From contig JAOBWJ010000163.1 in NCBI GenBank assembly GCA_025463335.1, positions 14,671 to 78,670 on the forward strand: a stretch of 64,000 nucleotides of DNA, read 5' to 3'. Every line of letters starts with the position of its first letter. The stretch's first letter is position 1. Below are positions 13,708 to 64,000 of this stretch, piece after piece. Source of the DNA: Acidimicrobiales bacterium (GTDB taxonomy: Bacteria > Actinomycetota > Acidimicrobiia > Acidimicrobiales > CADCSY01). The notes beneath the pieces were generated by a model that saw nothing but the letters and a program-made list of their open reading frames with translations, did no database searches and had not been told where the DNA came from. The position numbers and the translations under genes were made by a program.

Positions 13708-16193
13708 GCGTTGGCCACTTCCTGCTCGGCGGCGACTGGCTCGACGCCCCCGGCTGCCTCCAGCGTGAAGATGAAGGTCGAACCGTTGCCGACGCTCGAC
13801 TCCACTCGCAGCTCACCGCCGTGGAGATCGACGACTCGGCGGCACACGGCCAGACCGATCCCCATGCCGGTGAACTGATCGGACCGGTGGAGCCGGCGGA
13901 ACATGGCGAAGATCTGGTCCTGGTGTTGCGGTGGGATGCCGATGCCGTTGTCCTTCACCGACACCGTCCAGTGGCTCTGTGTCTGGTTGGGCTCGGCGGT
14001 GATGAGGATCTCCGGCGGCCGCGACGCGTCGCGGAAGCGGATGGCGTTGGCGACCAGGTTCTGCACGAGCTGCAACAACTGGGCCTGGTCGCCGAGGACC
14101 GTCGGTAGTGGGCCGACGTCGATGGTGGCGTGCGCCTCCTCGATCGCGGTGGTGAGGTTGGCCAGCGCGGCGTCGGTGACCACCGCCAGGTTGACCGGAC
14201 CGAGCTCCTGCACATCCTCCCGCAGTCGCGAGAACTCGAGGAGCCCCTCGATGAGCTGGCGCATCCGTTCCACCCCGGCGGCCACCGCTCCCAGGTAGCC
14301 GATGGCCCGTCCGTCGAGCGGCTGACCGAGCGTGTAGCGATGGGTGAGCAGCCCGACGTAGCCGCCCACGACGCGCAGCGGCTCGGAGAGGTCGTGGGAC
14401 ACGATGGACGCGAACTCCTCGAGGTCGCGATTCGAGCGCTCCAGATCGGCCGCGTACGACGCCAGCGCTGCCCGGTCAAGCATCTCGGACGTCATGTCAT
14501 GGGTGATCAGCGATGCCCCATCCGGCTCACCCGGCAATCCGCGGAGCGGCGACAAGGCCACGACGACGTCGACCACCGAGCCGTCGCGTCGACGGTGCCG
14601 CGTGAGGCGCTCGTTGACCGACTCGCCCAAGGCCACCTGGTGCAGCGCGTCGGTCATCTCGGCCTGGTGCTCCTCGGGCACCAGCAAGGCGATCGGCTGC
14701 CCGACCGCCTCTTCTGCCCGCCAGCCGTAGAGCCGTTCGGCGCCCGGGTTCCACGAGGTGATCGTTCCGTCCAGTGACAGAGCGAGGATCGGGTCCTGGG
14801 TCGACGAGACGATCGACGACAGGAGGGCGCGGTCCGCTTCGACGCGTCGGCGCAGGGAAACGTCGCGGATGATGGCGATCAACTGGCTGCGGTCGTCGTC
14901 GGGTCGAAGTGGGCTGATGTCGACCTCGACCGGCACGACCATGCCGTCGGCGCGGATCGCCGAGAGCGCGTCATCGGGCCAGACCGGTGGCTGTGCCCTT
15001 CTCGGGGTCAGGGACCACCCGGGGATCAGTTCGTCGACCTTCCGCCCGACGAGGTACTCGGGCACGACACCGAGCAGGTCGACCGCACGCTGCGAGGCGG
15101 AGGAGATGGTGCCCTCCCGGTCGATGACGAGGATGAGATCCGGAGCACTGGCGATGGTGGCCCGGAGGCGCTCCTCGGACGCGACGAGCGATCGCAGGGC
15201 GCGCTTGGCCGCAGCCGTCCACTGGCGATTCCCGCTGGCAAGGGACGCCACTAGACACGCCAACACCATGGTGAGCGCGAGCCCGATGCCGAGGACCGCG
15301 CTGGTCCGATCGGCGAGCCCCGCGGCCAGGTGGTGCGTTGGCGTCACGACAAGCTTCCAGCTCCGGTCGGCGACCGTGATGGCGAGCGTTCGAGGCGGTC
15401 GAAGGACGCGACCTGGCTGGCCGGCCCTAGCCACGGGCCCGTTCCTGCTGTCGTCATGGATGGCGACGTTGATCCCTTTGGGGAGTCGCAGTTGCTCGAC
15501 GAGCTCCTGGGCGCCAAACGGCAGACTCGACCAGCCCACGACCGCGGCCCGCCGCTGCGTGGGAGACGCGATCGGCGCTCCCGCCGCGAAGACCGGCGCA
15601 TAGATGATGTACGACCCGGACCGCGACGCGCGGGGAAGCAACCGGTCGACGATCGGCGCCGGTGACGAGCTCACGACCGCGGCGCCGCGCTCCGTGGCGG
15701 CAGTGAGCGCCTCGGCGGCGGGCGTGCCCAGCAGGTCGACGCCCCCCGCGGACCGGAAGGGCGCAGCCGGCTCCTCGTAGCGGACCACGGCCAGGTCGTG
15801 AGGCACGCCCGAGCCGGCCGTTGCGAGGCCGGCGCGGATCTGACGGATGTAACCCATTCCGGACACGTCGGGGAAGCGCGCACGGGCCTGAGCGGCGAAA
15901 CGGACGAACTCGTCCCTGGTCAGCTCCGGGGCGAGCGACAGGACGGCGGCCGTCGCCTCGGCCGCGCCGACCCGTGCATCGAGTCGAGATCGCAGCTGGT
16001 CCCGTACGTCGGCGACGGCGGGGTCGATTCGCTCTTTGATCTCGTCGGAGTGACGCTCGCGCTCGACGTCGGCCGCCGCGAAGGTTGCCACCGTCCCCAC
16101 GAGCAGCGCGACGAACGGTGCGACGATGCCGACGATGCGGGCCCAGTGAGGGCCTCCTCGCAGAACCGTCGTAGTCGAGGTCGCGTGGTCCAT
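13704..16193 (-). CDS. Sensor histidine kinase: two TM helices flanking a large extracytoplasmic (CHASE-like) domain, two PAS, HisKA, HATPase_c
   Basis: Track ORF 13704..16610 trimmed to ATG 16193 (MDHATSTTTVL), because the upstream part overlaps the regulator gene in another frame. H-box FASIVSHDLSEPL; N/G boxes NLVANAIRF, DNGIGIP, GMGIGLAV. Confidence 0.85.
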   Translation of the reverse strand: MDHATSTTTVLRGGPHWARIVGIVAPFVALLVGTVATFAAADVERERHSDEIKERIDPAVADVRDQLRSRLDARVGAAEATAAVLSLAPELTRDEFVRFAAQARARFPDVSGMGYIRQIRAGLATAGSGVPHDLAVVRYEEPAAPFRSAGGVDLLGTPAAEALTAATERGAAVVSSSPAPIVDRLLPRASRSGSYIIYAPVFAAGAPIASPTQRRAAVVGWSSLPFGAQELVEQLRLPKGINVAIHDDSRNGPVARAGQPGRVLRPPRTLAITVADRSWKLVVTPTHHLAAGLADRTSAVLGIGLALTMVLACLVASLASGNRQWTAAAKRALRSLVASEERLRATIASAPDLILVIDREGTISSASQRAVDLLGVVPEYLVGRKVDELIPGWSLTPRRAQPPVWPDDALSAIRADGMVVPVEVDISPLRPDDDRSQLIAIIRDVSLRRRVEADRALLSSIVSSTQDPILALSLDGTITSWNPGAERLYGWRAEEAVGQPIALLVPEEHQAEMTDALHQVALGESVNERLTRHRRRDGSVVDVVVALSPLRGLPGEPDGASLITHDMTSEMLDRAALASYAADLERSNRDLEEFASIVSHDLSEPLRVVGGYVGLLTHRYTLGQPLDGRAIGYLGAVAAGVERMRQLIEGLLEFSRLREDVQELGPVNLAVVTDAALANLTTAIEEAHATIDVGPLPTVLGDQAQLLQLVQNLVANAIRFRDASRPPEILITAEPNQTQSHWTVSVKDNGIGIPPQHQDQIFAMFRRLHRSDQFTGMGIGLAVCRRVVDLHGGELRVESSVGNGSTFIFTLEAAGGVEPVAAEQEVANA

Positions 16194-55953: not shown

Positions 55954-57906
55954 ATGGCCGACCAGGAGACACGCGTCTACAACGGGCGGTACGAGCTCCA
56001 TCGGCGCATCGCCCGGGGCGGGATGGCCGACGTCTACCTGGCCCGTGACCTGCTCCTCGATCGTCCGGTGGCGCTGAAGATCCTCTTCCCGGAGTTCTCC
56101 ACCGACGAGGCCTTCGTCGAGCGCTTCCGCCGCGAGGCGCAGTCGGCCGCCAACCTGAGCCACCCGAACATCGTCTCGGTCTACGACTGGGGCGAGGAGG
56201 ACGGCACGTACTTCATCGTCATGGAGTACGTGGAGGGCCGCAGCCTGGCCCAGATCCTCCGCGACGAGGGGGCGCTGCTCCCCGACCGAGCGGCCGACAT
56301 CACGACCGACATCGCCGCCGCCCTGGGGTTCGCTCATCGCAACGGCGTCATCCACCGGGACGTGAAGCCGGGCAACGTGCTCATGTCGCCGCTGGGCCAG
56401 GTCAAGGTCACCGACTTCGGCATCGCCCGGGCCGTCAGCACCCAGGACAACCTCACGCAGACCGGCACGGTCATGGGCACCGCGACCTACTTCTCCCCCG
56501 AGCAGGCGCGGGGCGAGTCGGTCGACCCCCGCAGCGACGTGTACTCGCTGGGCGTGGTCCTCTACGAGCTGCTCACCGGCGAACCGCCGTTCACCGGAGA
56601 CAACCCGGTCTCGGTGGCCTACAAGCACGTGCAGGAGCAGGCCGAGCGGCCAACCCATCGCAACCCGCGAATCCCCGTGGCCCTCGAGGCCGTGGTCATG
56701 AAGGCGCTGGCCAAGAACCCGGCCAACCGCTACGCCTCGGCCGACGACCTGGCTGCCGACCTTCGGCGCTACCGCGATGGGCGTCCCGTGCTGGCCGAAG
56801 GCATCCTCCCCGACGAGGAGCTGACCTCGGCCGTGTCTGCGGCCACCGTGGCCAGCGCCTACGCCGGCGGTGCCACCATGGCGGTGCCGAGGACCGACGG
56901 CACCCGGGCCGTGCCGGTCGGCGCCCAGGAGGAGTGGCACGAGGAGCCGCCCAAGCGCTCGCCCACGTTCCTCATCGTGTTGGGCGTGCTGCTCGTGCTG
57001 CTGGTGGCCCTGCTGGTGCTGTTCGCCCGCAACCTCGGCGTCGGCAACAGCACCGCCCAGGTGGCCGTGCCCACGGTGGTCGGGCTGACCCAAGACCAAG
57101 CCACGACCAAGCTCCAGGACGCCGGCTTCACCGTCGACCCCAAGTCCGAGTCCCAGCCCGACAAAGCCCCCGACATCGTCCTGCGCCAGGACCCCGAGGC
57201 CGGCACCAAGATCAAGAAGGGCGACAAGGTCACGATCGTCGTGAACTCCGGTCAGCCCTCGGTGTCGGTGCCCGACCTGGTCGGCAAGACCCGGCCCGAG
57301 GCGGACAAGCTCCTGAGCGACGCCGGCCTGGTCGGCGACTTCCAACCACAAGCCGACGACACCGTTCCCGAGGGGGGGGTCATCTCCCAGAACCCGTCCA
57401 GCGGCGACCTGCCCAAGGGCTCGACGGTCACCGTCACCTACTCGAGCGGGGCCGGTGAGACCCAGGTCCCAGACGTCACCGGGCTGACCGCGACCGATGC
57501 CGCCAACCAACTGGGCCGGGCCGGGTTCCAGGTCGTGACCGCGGATGAAGCCAGCTCGACGGTCGAGAAGGGTCTGGTCATCCGCACCAACCCGGCGGCC
57601 GACGCCACCCTGCAGAAGGGCGAGAAGGTCACGGTCTTCGTGTCGTCGGGTCCGTCGACCTCGACCGTGCCGAGCGTGATCGACCTGAGCCCTGAGCAAG
57701 CCGTGGCCACGCTGCGGGCCGATGGCTTCGTCGTGCAGCAGCAGACGCGCACCACGCTCGACCCGAACGAGGACGGCTTGGTGATCGGCCAGTCGCCCGA
57801 GGGGGACAGTCAAGCCTCGGCCGGCTCGACGGTGACGATCTACATCGGCCGCTTCGTCGGCAGTTCGTCGACGACCTCGTCGACGACTCCCACCAGCACG
57901 CCCTAA
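55954..57906 (+). CDS. pknB: Ser/Thr protein kinase with TM helix and four PASTA domains
   Basis: Track ORF. VALKIL, HRDVKPGN, DFGIA, SPEQ. Four repeats start VPTVVGL, VPDLVGK, VPDVTGL, VPSVIDL. Confidence 0.95.
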   Translation: MADQETRVYNGRYELHRRIARGGMADVYLARDLLLDRPVALKILFPEFSTDEAFVERFRREAQSAANLSHPNIVSVYDWGEEDGTYFIVMEYVEGRSLAQILRDEGALLPDRAADITTDIAAALGFAHRNGVIHRDVKPGNVLMSPLGQVKVTDFGIARAVSTQDNLTQTGTVMGTATYFSPEQARGESVDPRSDVYSLGVVLYELLTGEPPFTGDNPVSVAYKHVQEQAERPTHRNPRIPVALEAVVMKALAKNPANRYASADDLAADLRRYRDGRPVLAEGILPDEELTSAVSAATVASAYAGGATMAVPRTDGTRAVPVGAQEEWHEEPPKRSPTFLIVLGVLLVLLVALLVLFARNLGVGNSTAQVAVPTVVGLTQDQATTKLQDAGFTVDPKSESQPDKAPDIVLRQDPEAGTKIKKGDKVTIVVNSGQPSVSVPDLVGKTRPEADKLLSDAGLVGDFQPQADDTVPEGGVISQNPSSGDLPKGSTVTVTYSSGAGETQVPDVTGLTATDAANQLGRAGFQVVTADEASSTVEKGLVIRTNPAADATLQKGEKVTVFVSSGPSTSTVPSVIDLSPEQAVATLRADGFVVQQQTRTTLDPNEDGLVIGQSPEGDSQASAGSTVTIYIGRFVGSSSTTSSTTPTSTP

Positions 57907-58493
57907 CGGGCCGGAGTGGCTGCCCGGGCCAGGAAGTTCCGGAGCATGTCGTGGCCGGCCACGGTCAGGATCGACTCCGGGTGGAACTGCACACCCTCGA
58001 CGTCGAGCTCGCGGTGCCGTAGCCCCATGACGATGCCATCGTCGGTGCGGGCCGTGATCTCGAGCACCTCGGGGATGTTCTCGACCACCAACGAGTGGTA
58101 GCGGGTGGCTTCGAGCGGGTCGGGCAGGCCGGCGAACACCCCGGCCCCTTCGTGGCGGATCAGCGAGGTCTTCCCGTGCATGATCTCGGGCGCCCGCACG
58201 ACATCACCCCCGAACACCTGGCCGATGCACTGGTGGCCGAGGCACACGCCGAAGATCGGCAGCCGGCCGGCGTAGGTGCGGATCACCTCGTTGGAGAGGC
58301 CGGCGTCCTCGGGCCGACCCGGTCCGGGGGAGATCAGGATGGCGTCGGGCGCCAGGGTCTCGACGTCGTCGAGCGTGAACTGATCGGCCCGGTGCACGAC
58401 CGGATCAGCGCCCAGCTCACCCAGGTACTGGACCAGGTTGTAGACGAACGAGTCGTAGTTGTCGACGACGAGAACGCGGGGCCCGGTGCTCAC
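57903..58493 (-). CDS. trpG: Glutamine amidotransferase subunit of anthranilate / aminodeoxychorismate synthase
   Basis: C-terminal 196 codons of track ORF 57903..58643, from GTG 58493. VLVVDNYDSFVYNLVQYL, GVCLGHQ, QFHPES. Confidence 0.9.
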   Translation of the reverse strand: MSTGPRVLVVDNYDSFVYNLVQYLGELGADPVVHRADQFTLDDVETLAPDAILISPGPGRPEDAGLSNEVIRTYAGRLPIFGVCLGHQCIGQVFGGDVVRAPEIMHGKTSLIRHEGAGVFAGLPDPLEATRYHSLVVENIPEVLEITARTDDGIVMGLRHRELDVEGVQFHPESILTVAGHDMLRNFLARAATPAR

Positions 58494-58533: not shown

Positions 58534-58857
58534 ATGGCAGAGCGCAAGCCGGGAGCGGCCTCCCGTCGCACCACACCCAAGGGCGGGCGAACCACCCCCA
58601 AAGGTGGGCAGCACACCCCCGTCGGGCGCCCGTCCTCCGCCACCGAGTCGGGGCGCTACACCCCGCCGATTCCCCGCGACCAGAAGGTCAGCCCCATGTG
58701 GGTGCCGGTCCTGATGTTCACCCTGCTGGGTCTTGGCGTGCTGGTGATCATCCTCAACTACGTGAACCTGCTGCCGGGCGATGCCAGCAACGGCTACCTG
58801 CTCCTCGGGCTGCTGCTGATCACCGGCGGCTTCGTCACCGCGACCAGCTACCACTAG
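58534..58857 (+). CDS. crgA: Cell-division membrane protein CrgA
   Basis: Inner part of track ORF 58459..58857, from ATG 58534. Basic N-terminus, YTPP, and two TM helices (MWVPVLMFTLLGLGVLVIILNY; YLLLGLLLITGGFVTATSY). Conserved position near trpG/pknB. Confidence 0.85.
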   Translation: MAERKPGAASRRTTPKGGRTTPKGGQHTPVGRPSSATESGRYTPPIPRDQKVSPMWVPVLMFTLLGLGVLVIILNYVNLLPGDASNGYLLLGLLLITGGFVTATSYH

Positions 58858-58908: not shown

Positions 58909-58943
58909 GCCGGGTTACGAGTGAGTTACACGCGTGTGAGTCT

Positions 58944-58968
58944 CCCCAGGGTTGTCCACAACCTGGGG
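58944..58968. terminator. Hairpin between convergent crgA and the small minus-strand ORF (CCCCAGGGTTGT-CC-ACAACCTGGGG)
   Basis: Roughly 11-bp stem with a one-base bulge, read directly. An alternative pairing GTTGTCC (58951-58957) / GGACAAC (58967-58973) also exists. Ends 8 nt before the stop of the minus-strand ORF. Confidence 0.35.
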
Positions 58969-58975
58969 ACAACGC

Positions 58976-59233
58976 TCACTCCTCGGCCGAGGCGACCAGA
59001 TCCATCTCGTCCATGCAGTGCCGGGGCGGGCTCGGGTCCTCGTTGGCGGCCGTGGTGACCCGTAGCTCGAGGCCACAGATCGGGCACCGGTACCGCAACT
59101 TCACCCGCCGCAGCTCGCCCGCGGGCGGGGGCTCGGGCATGGGGCGGACCATGCCCTTCAGCACGGCGATGCCAGCTCGGAAGATCAGGTAGCCAGCGGC
59201 GACGGCCACGAGCACGGAGACCAGTTGGCCCAT
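58976..59233 (-). CDS. Small membrane-anchored protein with CxxC ... HC motif (85 aa)
   Basis: Track ORF. G/C-rich third positions. N-terminal TM helix, then RCPICG ... RHC. Starts 9 nt after the thiolase-like gene stop. Confidence 0.5.
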   Translation of the reverse strand: MGQLVSVLVAVAAGYLIFRAGIAVLKGMVRPMPEPPPAGELRRVKLRYRCPICGLELRVTTAANEDPSPPRHCMDEMDLVASAEE

Positions 59234-59242
59234 GGCGCCACG

Positions 59243-60397
59243 CTACGCCTGCTCGAGCAGAACCGCCGCTCCCAAGCCACCGAGGCCGGCCGTGGCGGCT
59301 ACGCCCCACCGGTCGACGAGGCCGTGGGCCAGGGTGGCGACCAGTCGCGCCCCCACCGCACCGGTCGGCTCGCCGAGGGCGATGCCACCGCCCGACGGGT
59401 TGGCCTCCACGCCGAGCGCCCGCTCGAAGGCGACCAGCGCGGCGGCGAAGGGCTCTCCCACCTCGAACCTCGCGACATCCCCTGAAGCGATGCCGGCCGC
59501 CGCCAGGACCCGGGACGCGGCGGCCGCGGCGCCGCCGAGCATGGCCAGCGGATCGGTGCCGACCACGACCGCCGCCCGCACCCAGGCCAGCGGGGTGTGG
59601 CCGAGGGCGGCGGCGGCCGTTTCCGACATGACCAGCACCGCCGCCGCCCCGTCACCGATGGCCGCGCTGTTGGCGGCCGTGACCATGCCGTCCAGGGCGA
59701 ACGAGGCCTTGGCCTGGGCCAACTCCTCGATGGCCAGGGCCGGCCGCGGAAGTTCGTCGGTGGTCACCGTGGTCCCCGGTCGGACGACCTCACCCCTGTC
59801 CCGGTCGAGCACCCGCGACGCCACCGGTACCACCTCGGGCCCGGTGCCGGCACCGGCGCGGACGTGGGAGCGGAGGGCCACCTCGTCGAGCGCGGCCCGG
59901 TCGAGCCCGAGCTTCACGGCCAGGGCTTCGGCGGCCACGCCGGCCGGCACCAGCCCGCCCGCGTCGCGGTAGCGCTCGACGACCCCAGGGCCGAACGGCA
60001 TCGAACCGGGGACGAGCGTGGCCCCGAGGGGCGTGGTCGACATGACCTCGACGCCGCCGGCCACCACCACCTCGCACGCGCCAGACGCCACCGCCCGGAC
60101 AGCATCCGCCACGGCGGCCAGCGACGACACCGCCTGGCGGTCGACCGTTCCGGCCGGAACGGTGTCGGGCCAGCCGGCCGCCAGCACCGCGCTGCGAGCC
60201 ACGTTGAAGCCCTGGTTCCCGACCGGCATGGCACAGCCGAGCACCACGTCGTCGACCAGGGCCGGGTCCAGCCCGGTGCGCTCGGCCAGCATCCGGAGCA
60301 CTTCGGCGGCGAGGTCGGCCGGGTGCCAGCCCGAGAGTCGCCCACCCCGGCCGCCGATCGGTGTGCGCACGGCATCGACGACGAGCACGGGACGCAC
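59243..60397 (-). CDS. Thiolase-fold protein lacking the canonical catalytic Cys/Asn/His/Cys residues
   Basis: C-terminal 384 codons of track ORF 59243..60925, from GTG 60397 (60388 is the alternative). Aligns by eye along its whole length with acetyl-CoA acetyltransferases (VDAVRTPIGG, AGGVEVMS, GGGIALG-x-P-x-GA-x-GARL). VDRQAVSSL replaces VNR-x-C-x-SGL, GEPFA replaces NEAFA, LGEP replaces LGHP, and ATAGLGGLG replaces C-x-GGG-x-G. Confidence 0.8.
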   Translation of the reverse strand: MRPVLVVDAVRTPIGGRGGRLSGWHPADLAAEVLRMLAERTGLDPALVDDVVLGCAMPVGNQGFNVARSAVLAAGWPDTVPAGTVDRQAVSSLAAVADAVRAVASGACEVVVAGGVEVMSTTPLGATLVPGSMPFGPGVVERYRDAGGLVPAGVAAEALAVKLGLDRAALDEVALRSHVRAGAGTGPEVVPVASRVLDRDRGEVVRPGTTVTTDELPRPALAIEELAQAKASFALDGMVTAANSAAIGDGAAAVLVMSETAAAALGHTPLAWVRAAVVVGTDPLAMLGGAAAAASRVLAAAGIASGDVARFEVGEPFAAALVAFERALGVEANPSGGGIALGEPTGAVGARLVATLAHGLVDRWGVAATAGLGGLGAAVLLEQA

Positions 60398-60449
60398 GGT
60401 CGGCGAGGGTAGTTCTCGATGACGGTGACACGAACGGCCCGGGGGGAGG

Positions 60450-61691
60450 ATGGCGGCTGACTCCGGTGTCATCGAGAATGAGTGTCCCGGTATGTCCACT
60501 TCCTCCACCGATCGCGACGTCGCGCGCTCCGCCGAGCGGTACGAGCGCCTGCTCGAGGTGCAGTCGCTGTTGGCCCGGGTGAGCCGGGAGGTCGGCCCGG
60601 GCCTGAACCTCGACCAGGTGCTGGACACGGTCCTGACGGCCACGCGCTCCCTCGTGGAGTTCGACGGCGGCGTCATCTCGCTGATCGAGGGCGATGAGCT
60701 GGTGATGGTCGCCCACGACCCGGCGCCGAGCGGCAACGGGACCCTCCGGACGCCGACCACGACAGGCATCGCCGGCCGGGTGCTGGCCAGCGGGACGAGC
60801 GCCGTGTCGGAGGACCTCCGCACGGACGACCGCGTGTCCCCCGAGCTCCGCGAGGTCGTGCTCCGTCGCGGCATCGCGTCGTACCTGTGCGTGCCGCTCG
60901 TCAACATGGGCGCAGTCATCGGCACTCTTCAGCTCCACGCGTCGCGCCCGGCGGCGTTCGACGACGAACACCGGGTCCTGCTCGAGGGCCTGGCCATCCA
61001 GGTCGCCGGGGCCATCGAGAGCGCCCGGCGTTACGAGATGATCACCCAGCTCGAGGTGCTCAAGAGCGACTTCATCGCCCGCGTCTCCCATGAGCTGCGC
61101 ACCCCGATCACGATCATGTCCGGCTTCGTGAGCACGCTCCTGACCAACAACGAGCGTCTCGACGGCGACTCCCGTCAGCGCATGCTCGAACGGGTCGACG
61201 TGGCCACCGCCCGCTTGTCGGGGCTCATCGACCAGTTGCTCATGCTCTCCCGCCTCGAAGCCGGGGTCATCGCCACCACCATGGAGACCGTCGAGGCGGC
61301 CCGGGTGCTGGAGGAGGTGCGCCGCCAGGCCGAGCAGCCCGAGGCCGTCGAGGTGGCCTGTGCCGACGGTCTGCTCCTGACCACCGACCCAAGCCTCCTG
61401 CTGCGGGCCCTCGGCTTCCTGGTCGACAACTCGCTGAAGTACGCCGGCTCGTGCCGCATCGAGGCCAGCAACGACGTCATCGAGGTGACCGACCACGGAC
61501 CGGGCATCCCGCCCGATCAGCGATCCCGTGTGTTCGAGCAGTTCACCCGGGCCAACGAGGACACCACGGTGCCGGGGATGGGCATCGGGCTTCCCATGGC
61601 TCGCACCCTGCTGCACGCGGCCGGTGCCGACCTGACCATCGCCGAACCGCCCGACGGCGTCGGCACTCGGATGGTTGTCCGCTTCACCTGA
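60450..61691 (+). CDS. GAF-domain sensor histidine kinase (no adjacent regulator)
   Basis: Track ORF. GAF region, then H-box FIARVSHELRTPIT and ATPase motifs FLVDNSLKY, DHGPGIP, GMGIGLPM. ATG 60492 is an alternative start. Confidence 0.85.
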   Translation: MAADSGVIENECPGMSTSSTDRDVARSAERYERLLEVQSLLARVSREVGPGLNLDQVLDTVLTATRSLVEFDGGVISLIEGDELVMVAHDPAPSGNGTLRTPTTTGIAGRVLASGTSAVSEDLRTDDRVSPELREVVLRRGIASYLCVPLVNMGAVIGTLQLHASRPAAFDDEHRVLLEGLAIQVAGAIESARRYEMITQLEVLKSDFIARVSHELRTPITIMSGFVSTLLTNNERLDGDSRQRMLERVDVATARLSGLIDQLLMLSRLEAGVIATTMETVEAARVLEEVRRQAEQPEAVEVACADGLLLTTDPSLLLRALGFLVDNSLKYAGSCRIEASNDVIEVTDHGPGIPPDQRSRVFEQFTRANEDTTVPGMGIGLPMARTLLHAAGADLTIAEPPDGVGTRMVVRFT

Positions 61692-61733: not shown

Positions 61734-63524
61734 GTGATGACCTCAGCCAGCGTGATCGATGCCCGCGCCGAGGGCCGAACCGTGGTCTCGATGTTCCTCG
61801 AGACGCTTGCCGCCAAGCCCGACCAGATCGCCCTCCGCTGGCGGACGGGTGACGCCTGGGGGGCGCTGACGTGGGCCGAGGTCGCCGACCGGGCGGCCCA
61901 CGTGGCCGGGGGGCTGGCCGCCGCCGGCGTCGACAGCGGCGACCGGGTGCTGCTCATGATGCGCAACCGGCCCGAATTCCACGTGGCCGACCTCGGCGCC
62001 CTGCTCGCCGGGGCCACGCCGATCTCGATCTACAACTCATCGTCCGCCGAGCAGATCGCCTACCTCGCCGGCCACGCCAAGGCCCGGGTGGCCATCGTGG
62101 AGGACGAGGGGTTCCTCGCCCGCATCCAGCAGGCCCGGGCCCAGCTCCCGGCCCTCGAGCAGGTGTTCCTCATCGACGGCGAGGCCGGCGGCGACATCCG
62201 CCCGTGGCACGAGCTGTTCGCCACCGGGCCCGTCGGCCTCGACTCGGGGTCGGCGCGCAATCATCCCGACGGGCTGGCCACGGTGATCTACACCTCGGGC
62301 ACGACCGGCCCGCCCAAGGGCGTGCAGATCACCCATCGCAACGTGGTGTGGACGGTCGAGAGCTACCGGCACTTGGTCGGCGACATCGAGGACCTCCGCA
62401 CGGTGTCCTACCTGCCCATGGCCCACATCGCCGAGCGGGTCAGTTCGCACTACCTGGCGCTGGCGTGCGGGTTCGACGTGGCCACCTGCCCCGATGCCTC
62501 ACAGCTCGGCGCCTACTGCCGCGAGGTCCGGCCCGAGACCATCTTCGGCGTGCCGCGCGTGTGGGAGAAGATGCACGCCTCCGTCCGGGCCGGCCTGGCC
62601 GCCGACCCGGCCAAGGCGGCGGGCTTCGAGCAGGCCCTCGGCGTGGCCCTCCCGCTGCAGCTGGCCCGCCGCACCCGGGAGCTCACGGCCGACGAGCAGG
62701 CCACCCTCGACGGGCTCGACGGCGCCGTCTTCCGTGCGGTTCGGGAGAGGCTCGGCCTCGACGCCGCCCGCTTCGCAGTGAGTGGTGCCGCCCCCATCTC
62801 GGTCGAGGTGCTCGAGTGGTTCGTCGCCATCGGCGTGCCGTTCTCGGAGATCTACGGCATGTCGGAGAACACCGGCCCGCTCACCTGGGAGCCGTGGCGG
62901 ATCCGGCCCGGCACCGTGGGACGAGCCATGCCCGGCGTGGACGTGCGCCTGGCCGACGACGGCGAGGTGGTGGCCAGCGGCGGGCTCGTCTTCCCCGGCT
63001 ACCTCGATGACCCGGCCAAGACGGCCGAGGCCCTCGACGTCGAGGGCTGGCTCCACACCGGCGACATCGGCGTGCTCGACGACGACGGCTACCTCCGTAT
63101 CGTCGATCGCAAGAAGGAGCTGATCATCACCGCCGGCGGCAAGAACATCAGCCCGGCCAACCTCGAGTCCGCCCTGCGCACCATCCCCCTCGTCGGCCAG
63201 GCCGCCGCCATCGGGGACCAGCGCAGGTTCATCGCCGCCCTCCTGGTCCTCGACCCCGACGGCGCCCGGGCGTGGGCCGCCAACCACGGGAAGGACGACG
63301 CCTCGCTCGCCGAGCTGGCCGCCGACCCGGAGCTGATCGCCGAGGTGGCCAAGGGCGTGGAGGAGGCCATGGCCGACTTCAACCACGCCGAACAGGTCAA
63401 GCGCTTCACCGTGCTGGCCGAGGAGTGGCTGCCCGACTCCGAGGAGCTCACGCCCACCTCCAAGCTCAAGCGGCGCGGCATCCACGCCAAGTACGCCGCC
63501 CAGATCGAGGCGATGTACGAGTAG
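61734..63524 (+). CDS. Long-chain acyl-CoA synthetase (AMP-forming, FadD-like)
   Basis: Track ORF. AMP-binding signature YTSGTTGPPKGV; TGDIG ... DRKKELIITAGGKNISP. Confidence 0.9.
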   Translation: MMTSASVIDARAEGRTVVSMFLETLAAKPDQIALRWRTGDAWGALTWAEVADRAAHVAGGLAAAGVDSGDRVLLMMRNRPEFHVADLGALLAGATPISIYNSSSAEQIAYLAGHAKARVAIVEDEGFLARIQQARAQLPALEQVFLIDGEAGGDIRPWHELFATGPVGLDSGSARNHPDGLATVIYTSGTTGPPKGVQITHRNVVWTVESYRHLVGDIEDLRTVSYLPMAHIAERVSSHYLALACGFDVATCPDASQLGAYCREVRPETIFGVPRVWEKMHASVRAGLAADPAKAAGFEQALGVALPLQLARRTRELTADEQATLDGLDGAVFRAVRERLGLDAARFAVSGAAPISVEVLEWFVAIGVPFSEIYGMSENTGPLTWEPWRIRPGTVGRAMPGVDVRLADDGEVVASGGLVFPGYLDDPAKTAEALDVEGWLHTGDIGVLDDDGYLRIVDRKKELIITAGGKNISPANLESALRTIPLVGQAAAIGDQRRFIAALLVLDPDGARAWAANHGKDDASLAELAADPELIAEVAKGVEEAMADFNHAEQVKRFTVLAEEWLPDSEELTPTSKLKRRGIHAKYAAQIEAMYE

Positions 63525-63530
63525 GAGGCT

Positions 63531-64000
63531 TCAGACCGTCAGCCCGAACTGGGGGAGGGCGGCGGTGCGGGTGCGCAGCAGGTCCTCCATCTCCGCCGAC
63601 CGCAGAGGCCGGGAGAAGTGCCAGCCCTGGGCCAGCGTGCACTGGAGGTCGGCGAGGGCGGCCCGCTGGTCGGGGCGCTCGACGCCCTCGGCGATCGTCT
63701 CCAGGTTGAGGCTGCGGGCCAACCGCAGGATGGCCTGCACCAGCGCCGTGTCCTCCTCGCTCCGACCCAGGCCATCGATGAACGAGCGGTCGATCTTGAG
63801 CACGTCGATGGGCAGGTGACGCAGGTACGCCAGCGACGAGTAGCCGGTGCCGAAGTCGTCGATGGCCAGGCGCACGCCCAAGGCCCGCAGCGCCTCCAAC
63901 GTCTTGATGCCGAGTGACTCGTTGCGGAGCAGGAACCGCTCGGTGATCTCGATGACCAGATGCTCGGGTGGCAGGCCGGAGACCTCGAGCGCCAGCTCCA
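63531..64000 (-). CDS. EAL-domain phosphodiesterase, C-terminal part only (N-terminus outside the window)
   Basis: Track ORF 63531..63899 begins at an internal TTG. The frame stays open to 64000, where the reverse complement reads ...PEHLVIEITERFLL. Motifs EITE, DDFGTGYSS, KIDRSF, AEGVE, QGW. Confidence 0.85.
   Translation of the reverse strand, partial: ELALEVSGLPPEHLVIEITERFLLRNESLGIKTLEALRALGVRLAIDDFGTGYSSLAYLRHLPIDVLKIDRSFIDGLGRSEEDTALVQAILRLARSLNLETIAEGVERPDQRAALADLQCTLAQGWHFSRPLRSAEMEDLLRTRTAALPQFGLTV

Follow-up and report, generated by a model that had tools for sequence, protein, structure and literature searches.

A thiolase II homologue without its four catalytic residues, encoded beside a predicted small membrane protein in Acidimicrobiales

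The thiolase-like protein and its active site

The 64,000-nucleotide stretch of DNA analyzed here (the window; positions 14,671 to 78,670 of contig JAOBWJ010000163.1) belongs to a metagenome-assembled genome (MAG) of an Acidimicrobiales bacterium and has a GC content of ~71%. On its minus strand lies a thiolase II-like gene, followed by the gene of an 85-residue protein. In an original prediction, made from the sequence by eye, the thiolase-like product was described as a full-length thiolase homologue in which every canonical catalytic residue is replaced, and which would be either non-catalytic or an enzyme with different chemistry. The gene and the codons at its four catalytic positions (named by the residues of the Zoogloea thiolase) are as follows:

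59243..60397, minus strand: thiolase II-like gene (pseudo-thiolase), 384 aa (Pfam, NCBIfam, PDB alignments, AlphaFold2 model, dN/dS)
60131..60133, minus strand: codon GCG of Ala89, at the position of the nucleophilic Cys89 of the CxS motif (phmmer and MAFFT alignments)
59456..59458, minus strand: codon GGA of Gly314, at the position of Asn316 of the NEAF motif, oxyanion hole 1 (alignments)
59369..59371, minus strand: codon GAG of Glu343, at the position of His348 of the GHP motif (alignments)
59288..59290, minus strand: codon GCC of Ala370, at the position of the acid/base Cys378 of the CxG motif (alignments)

The open reading frame (ORF) starts with GTG and ends with the stop codon at 59243-59245. 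The product of the GenBank model MCU1378864.1, which carries the NCBI name 'thiolase family protein', is 100% identical, with its start placed three codons downstream of this GTG. Both thiolase domains are matched over their full length by the 384-residue protein: Pfam Thiolase_N with an E-value of 1.6e-54 (profile positions 1-259 of 260) and Thiolase_C with 1.1e-18 (positions 2-122 of 123). The match to TIGR01930 likewise spans the whole model, at 294.6 bits relative to a cut-off of 240.55; the protein scores far lower than the cut-off of every equivalog model, and its closest NCBIfam sub-models are PRK06504 and PRK07801. An AlphaFold2 (AF2) model, calculated from 62 aligned sequences, has a mean predicted local distance difference test (pLDDT) score of 93.4 and a predicted template modelling (pTM) score of 0.94. 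In Foldseek alignments, this model superimposes on the thiolases 8gqg, 8gqf, and 2wu9 with template modelling (TM) scores of 0.90-0.93 and a root-mean-square deviation of ~2 Å, and the best PDB matches share 32-39% sequence identity with the protein. The profile matches and the confident thiolase fold, the latter obtained by the structure modelling that the original prediction had proposed as a check, agree with its description of a thiolase II homologue from end to end.

Thiolase chemistry requires Cys89, His348, Cys378, and Asn316, and the thiolase fingerprints are listed in PMC3406046. The register of these positions was taken from phmmer alignments to the solved thiolases KAT2 (2c7y/2wu9) and FadA (3goa) and from three MAFFT alignments, one of which included the Zoogloea thiolase; the numbering was verified on PDB 1m4s. 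The phmmer and MAFFT alignments concur, which rules out a mis-registered alignment, and the register that had been read by eye is correct: Ala, Gly, Glu, and Ala stand at the positions of Cys89, Asn316, His348, and Cys378. The outcome that would have refuted the original prediction, an alignment with Cys/His/Cys at the catalytic sites, is not observed. The thiolase II residues at positions 89, 316, 348, and 378/380 are thus each absent. Five residues that are invariant in canonical orthologues are also altered (Gly90 to Val, Ser247 to Ala, Ser353 to Val, Glu379 to Gly, and Gly380 to Leu); of these, Ser247 is taken here to be a pantetheine contact, and Gly380 of the CxG motif corresponds to Leu372 of the window protein. 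Leu148, Arg220, Phe235, Glu317, Phe319, and the Gly/Pro framework of the GxPxGxxG loop are retained. Since none of the four catalytic residues is left, the protein is judged very unlikely to carry out Claisen or thiolytic chemistry.

A clade of degenerate thiolases under purifying selection

A search of 5.8 billion proteins returned 41 relatives with 58-100% identity to the window protein, all from metagenomes or from Acidimicrobiales/Actinomycetia MAGs and all missing the catalytic residues. The 39 full-length members among them (58-91% identity) are referred to here as the dead clade; in a neighbour-joining tree built without the motif columns, the window's own clade has a bootstrap value of 92/100. 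The next-nearest proteins, at ~50% identity, are canonical thiolases with Cys/Asn/His/Cys at the four positions. When GTDB species genomes were scanned with the window protein, at least 80 loci with thiolases at 42-50% identity were obtained. No dead-clade member is present among the matches listed, all of which have ≤50% identity and turned out to be canonical thiolases of the same locus, and the Cys/Asn/His/Cys set is intact in 77/80 loci among these matches.

The dead clade differs from 43 canonical orthologues at the same locus at each catalytic site. The Cys89 position is occupied by Gly in 31 members and Ala in 8 (Cys in 43/43 canonical proteins), and the Asn316 position by Gly in 21, Ala in 15, Cys in 2, and Ser in 1 (Asn in 43/43). 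At the His348 position, Glu is found in 39/39 members, within the motif GEPTG (His in 43/43), whereas the Cys378 position holds Val, Ala, Gly, or Pro (Cys in 42/43). Because the four sites are near-invariant in the canonical orthologues, a chance pattern is ruled out. All 39 members have also replaced Ser247, Gly90, Ser353, and Gly380, which are kept in the 43 orthologues; the Gly380 position varies within the clade.

Conservation in the dead clade extends to 76 positions that are invariant over the 39 sequences, newly fixed ones included. About 18 sites are fixed in the dead clade only, among them Glu343, Arg310, His178, His358, and T122...T127-L128-V129-P130. The last group lies in the best-conserved stretch of these proteins:

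59945..60061, minus strand: residues 113-151 (AGGVEVMSTTPLGATLVPGSMPFGPGVVERYRDAGGLVP), the start of the loop domain (conservation comparison)

Over residues 121-140, conservation is 0.86 in the dead clade compared to 0.79 in the canonical orthologues. In the AF2 model, the region of residues 113-151 has the lowest confidence (pLDDT of 66-83), and a conserved stretch of low pLDDT might correspond to a surface loop that becomes ordered upon binding something.

To place these substitutions in the context of selection, ratios of nonsynonymous to synonymous divergence (dN/dS) were calculated pairwise among six dead-clade loci by the method of Nei and Gojobori (NG86), for which dS is only approximate at 71% GC. 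The thiolase-like gene has a dN/dS of 0.18-0.38, compared with 0.22-0.69 for pknB, 0.20-0.46 for the acyl-CoA synthetase gene, 0.16-0.55 for the GAF kinase gene, 0.07-0.31 for the small gene, and 0.05-0.21 for trpG. Based on this ratio and on a GC content at third codon positions (GC3) of 0.906 in its reading frame, the thiolase-like gene is under purifying selection, with a dN/dS like that of the neighbouring genes. The loss of catalytic residues and the purifying selection that together define a functional pseudoenzyme are both observed. A decaying pseudogene was rejected on the basis of the dN/dS values, the GC3, and the intact ORFs, which are undisrupted in 39/39 divergent dead-clade sequences. 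In the same genome pairs, the pairwise dS of the thiolase-like gene is 0.43-1.0 versus ~0.3-0.6 for its neighbours; weaker codon bias is one possible cause of the higher values.

The protein nevertheless evolves quickly. When trpG is used as a rate yardstick, the ratio of thiolase to TrpG protein distances is 3.5-3.9 in the dead clade and 0.67-0.79 among 44 canonical same-locus orthologues, which corresponds to a roughly five-fold faster protein evolution in the dead clade. This relaxation is concentrated in the C-terminal third, the carrier of the NEAF, GHP, and CxG loops, where the frequency of the top residue is 0.61-0.69 in the dead clade versus 0.85-0.99 in the canonical proteins. The N-terminal half remains conserved. 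Constraint on the dead-clade thiolase is thus relaxed yet not lost.

Degenerate thiolases are not confined to this clade. A dead-clade profile was searched against 1.84 billion representative proteins, and among the best 150 matches ~55 are missing at least one catalytic residue. The top match, P0241, has A/H/D/A at positions 89/316/348/378, and other degenerate forms have C/H/H/A, C/H/H/S, C/G/H/A, A/H/A/A, or S/V/L/P; Ser247 is replaced by Ala in nearly all of them. Replacement of Asn316 by His and of His348 by Asp or Glu recurs in these homologues (P0241-P0390; loci L089, L090, and L091). The Cys-His-His set of some forms presumably resembles the triad of β-ketoacyl-acyl carrier protein synthases (KAS) I/II, and the degenerate sister forms may be enzymes of altered chemistry rather than dead proteins. 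Only two degenerate matches carry organism names, both of Acidimicrobiales/Acidimicrobiia MAGs. P0241 and P0252 share the synteny of the window, with the small gene present, and degenerate forms with A/H/D/A and with C/G/H/A are among those that occupy this locus in other Acidimicrobiia. The degenerate copy of L090 is located near gyrA, and the most degenerate gene seen, with Ser/Val/Leu/Pro at the four sites, lies in L091 (6001-7594; GCA_044220495.1, of a lower-GC lineage), matches Thiolase_C only weakly, and abuts crgA with the small gene absent between them. The neighbour-joining tree joins all degenerate forms with a bootstrap value of 42/100; as long-branch attraction is possible, a single origin of all degenerate forms is not upheld. 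The basal members of the degenerate group retain Cys89 and His348, which suggests that Ser247, Asn316, and Cys378 may have been lost before these two residues.

The predicted small membrane protein and the chromosomal setting

Three features follow the thiolase-like gene on the same strand:

59234..59242, minus strand: spacer of 9 nt from the thiolase-like stop codon to the ATG of the small protein (sequence)
58976..59233, minus strand: 85-aa protein of an uncharacterized family (alignments, AF2 model)
58931..58985, minus strand: hairpin overlapping the stop codon of the small gene, between the convergent small gene and crgA (folding versus shuffles)

Alignments and an AF2 model (pLDDT of 84) divide the 85-residue protein into an N-terminal helix (residues 2-28), a PEPPPxGE linker, and a small β domain. 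Cys50, Cys53, His72, and Cys73 are invariant, in a C50xxC53 plus H72-C73 arrangement (CxxC...RHC). The helix is likely a membrane anchor, and the β domain is likely a C2HC zinc ribbon. Homologues of 81-86 residues adjoin crgA throughout the class Acidimicrobiia (L001-L089), with 51-92% identity over the loci examined. The 85-residue protein has no Pfam or NCBIfam family, and its 286 homologues are unnamed or 'hypothetical' but for one labelled 'rubredoxin'. Foldseek gave no significant match to the model (best E = 0.43), and the nominal matches are zinc-ribbon or desulforedoxin modules. Assignment to DUF35, rubredoxin, or another known family was rejected on these grounds.

The 9-nt spacer is consistent with a single transcription unit, and the small gene is co-oriented with and downstream of the thiolase gene in 62/62 loci that contain both, with a median gap of 16.5 nt and a gap of ≤150 nt in 55/62. 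The hairpin has a folding energy of −24.8 kcal/mol (z = −2.6 against shuffles), lacks a T-run, and may be a bidirectional terminator shared by the small gene and crgA. A consensus scan for sigma-70 promoters and T-run terminators found nothing and missed this hairpin. Taken together, the co-orientation, the short gaps, and the hairpin support a two-gene unit that would be older than the loss of catalysis.

Beyond this pair, the window contains the following neighbours:

58534..58857, plus strand: crgA, ~107 aa, start inferred, convergent with the small gene (Pfam CrgA on homologous neighbours; tblastn)
57903..58493, minus strand: trpG/pabA-type glutamine amidotransferase, 196 aa, start inferred
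55954..57906, plus strand: PknB-type Ser/Thr kinase with PASTA domains, in the conserved fhaA-PP2C-rodA-pbpA-pknB division/elongation cluster
60450..61691, plus strand: GAF-HisKA-HATPase sensor kinase, divergent from the thiolase-like gene
61734..63524, plus strand: AMP-binding acyl-CoA synthetase, a thiolase neighbour in dead and canonical lineages alike
63531-63899, minus strand: GAF-GGDEF-EAL protein, of which the EAL end alone lies inside the window

Seven dead-clade loci (the window, L001, L002, L003, L087, L088, and the contig of P0017) have one arrangement: the acyl-CoA synthetase gene, usually the GAF histidine kinase gene, the divergent thiolase-like gene, and the gene of 81-86 residues, beyond which lie crgA, trpG, pknB, pbpA, rodA, PP2C, and FHA genes. 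The kinase gene is separated from the thiolase-like gene by a 52-nt intergenic region (60398-60449) and is an orphan, with no response regulator adjoining it within the window; it is found in most dead-clade loci, and in the canonical loci L005/L006 it separates the thiolase gene from the small gene. Past the acyl-CoA synthetase gene, dead-clade loci also conserve a gene for a GAF-GGDEF-EAL cyclic-di-GMP protein (L001 2663-4732, L088 2701-4770, and L089 730-2874).

The same position is occupied by active-type thiolases elsewhere in the class. Among the GTDB matches listed, ~55 Acidimicrobiia loci have a thiolase at the identical position, followed by the same small gene and by crgA/trpG, and such thiolases occur in Ilumatobacteraceae, Microthrixaceae, Acidimicrobiaceae, and acIV. 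In ~44 canonical Acidimicrobiia loci, the gene order is that of the seven dead-clade loci, from the acyl-CoA synthetase gene through an occasional GAF kinase gene, the thiolase, and the small gene to crgA, trpG, and pknB. These canonical proteins match TIGR01930 at 472 bits and share their two best sub-models, PRK07801 and PRK06504, with the window protein. Descent of the window gene from a same-locus active thiolase is the most parsimonious interpretation.

Possible functions of the pseudo-thiolase

In its architecture, length, and fold, the window protein corresponds to canonical thiolase II enzymes (TIGR01930), such as KAT2 of A. thaliana (2c7y/2wu9), FadA of Salmonella (3goa), and 8gqg of P. 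aeruginosa, and it shares 42-50% identity and a chromosomal position with the Acidimicrobiia enzymes of the same locus. In contrast to these enzymes, it is without the four catalytic residues, scores 295 rather than 472 bits against TIGR01930, and evolves about five times faster. The closest characterized analogue in kind is MsTLP1, which belongs to a different subfamily: it too has a thiolase fold and a thiolase annotation, its CxS, NEAF, GHP, CxG, and VMG fingerprints are not conserved, and it has no thiolase activity (PMC3406046). MsTLP1 differs in being 15% identical to the Zoogloea thiolase, close to SCP2-thiolases, monomeric, and equipped with an extra C-terminal β-barrel domain (PMC3406046). 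The window protein is a plain 384-residue thiolase II homologue with no extra domain; it has lost the fingerprints, but without a β-barrel domain and with thiolase II proteins as its nearest relatives it falls outside the TLP1 type.

The gene pair also recalls the complexes of thiolases with DUF35 proteins, of which Ltp2-ChsH2, Sal-Shy, BbsAB, PhlABC, and the archaeal thiolase/HMGCS/DUF35 complex are examples (PMC12329534). DUF35 domains act in these as scaffolds or shape the cleft, and one DUF35 has a Cys3His1 site (PMC12329534). In both cases a thiolase-fold gene stands beside the gene of a small Cys/His zinc-finger protein, here with a predicted C-x2-C...H-C zinc ribbon. Unlike DUF35, however, the 85-residue protein has no oligonucleotide/oligosaccharide-binding (OB) fold and no DUF35 Pfam match at E≤1, and it has a membrane helix, so that the zinc ribbon plus OB fold partner of a DUF35-thiolase system is absent; the thiolase partners of DUF35 are, moreover, of the SCP2/Ltp type and catalytically active. 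Literature searches on thiolase pseudoenzymes, Acidimicrobiia, crgA, and zinc ribbons retrieved no paper about the present thiolase-like family or the small protein.

Because the fold and the N-terminal half are conserved and new residues have been fixed, the window protein is proposed to be a pseudoenzyme that has probably been kept for a non-catalytic role, most likely as a structural or ligand-binding dimer working with the small membrane protein. Its ancestor would have been a degradative-type thiolase, of the kind that most Acidimicrobiia keep directly upstream of the small gene by crgA-trpG-pknB. One Acidimicrobiales lineage would then have lost both catalytic Cys residues (nucleophile and acid/base), the activating His, the Asn of the oxyanion hole, and the Ser that binds pantetheine, thereby presumably abolishing thiolysis and Claisen condensation. 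Conservation would have persisted in the fold, the N-terminal half, and the start of the loop domain, with Glu343, Arg310, and His178 newly fixed, and the presumably co-transcribed small membrane protein would tether the thiolase-like dimer to the membrane, as the gene association suggests. The original prediction of a non-catalytic protein or one with different chemistry is supported by the lost residues together with the purifying selection, the 39 intact ORFs, and the GC3.

Several observations weigh against this proposal. Both the invariant acidic residue at the old His site and the other newly fixed residues might point to new chemistry or to ligand binding rather than to a pure scaffold, and the selection estimates carry the approximate dS noted above. 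The small gene remains by crgA where the thiolase has been displaced (L004, L005/6), the degenerate thiolases of L090 and L091 have no adjacent small gene, and the pairing may partly reflect a frozen gene order near the replication origin. Of the claims about the 85-residue protein, its position 9 nt downstream and its CxxC motif are seen in the sequence, its membrane anchor is predicted, and the pair does occur together in 62 loci, as a co-occurrence check; its suggested partnership with the thiolase-like protein is favoured by the gene association and is tempered by the small gene staying at crgA when the thiolase has moved.

The first of these observations leads to a re-purposed enzyme that would catalyze another reaction (decarboxylation, retro-aldol cleavage, or hydrolysis) through Glu343 and possibly Arg310, His178, or His358. 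The presence of Glu343 in 39/39 members speaks for it, as do the ~18 dead-clade-only sites, several of them near the old active-site motifs, and sister lineages that recurrently carry His316 with Asp/Glu348, or Cys-His-His, like alternative catalytic sets. The Sal/Ltp2 aldolases, which re-use the thiolase fold, and TbSLP provide a precedent (PMC12329534). In the dead clade, however, position 316 is Gly/Ala, positions 89, 378, and 380 hold small or hydrophobic residues or vary, and Ser247 is Ala. With the C-terminal catalytic loops the most relaxed and evolution five-fold faster, active-site loss fits better, and a new reaction is considered unlikely. It is also quite unlikely that the protein serves as the non-catalytic partner of an active thiolase paralogue, or of a different β-oxidation enzyme, in a heteromer whose other subunit is encoded elsewhere. 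Such a subunit would be comparable to the ketosynthase-chain length factor (KS-CLF) pair of type II polyketide synthases, in which CLF is a thiolase-superfamily, non-condensing partner without the nucleophilic Cys; the CLF gene adjoins that of the active KS, and CLF has a defined Gln at the Cys position. The conserved N-terminal domain and loop-domain segment, which contribute to oligomer contacts in thiolases, and the acyl-CoA synthetase gene that is still a neighbour are in keeping with a heteromer. Known inactive partners are, however, normally encoded beside the active one, whereas a tblastn search of the 64-kb window found no further thiolase gene and none is present in the flanks of dead-clade loci; an adjacent competent paralogue, as in KS-CLF, was therefore rejected.

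The fast protein evolution and the high variability of active-site positions in the wider degenerate group would also be expected of a useless, slowly decaying relic that persists through co-transcription in a conserved operon. This explanation is most improbable, as the dN/dS is similar to that of bona fide neighbours and, at a dS of 0.5-1.0 between clade members, 0 of 39 ORFs are disrupted and the 76 positions stay invariant. As an extension of the proposed non-catalytic role, the thiolase-fold and small proteins could form a membrane-tethered, non-enzymatic module of the crgA-pknB-pbpA-rodA locus; the active ancestor would already have served this function beside catalysis, the dead clade would have kept nothing else, and the diverse sister lineages (Cys-His-His, Ala-His-Asp, and others) would be further functional experiments with one scaffold. 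This extension is speculative and rather unlikely; if true, the division/elongation locus would include, for example, an acyl-CoA or lipid-status sensor or a scaffold.

In practice, the main effect is that these proteins are systematically mis-annotated as active β-oxidation enzymes. Dead-clade proteins are named 'thiolase family protein' or 'acetyl-CoA acetyltransferase' by NCBI and 'acetyl-CoA acyltransferase' by JGI. Given these names and the TIGR01930 cut-off that is still passed, metabolic reconstructions of soil and freshwater Acidimicrobiales MAGs will count a β-oxidation step that the gene almost certainly cannot perform, to judge from its sequence. Active, partly degenerate, and fully dead versions at one conserved position provide a clean natural series for the transition from enzyme to pseudoenzyme. 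Finally, the conserved pairing with a probable zinc-binding membrane protein by the division genes offers a testable lead to a non-metabolic role of the thiolase fold.

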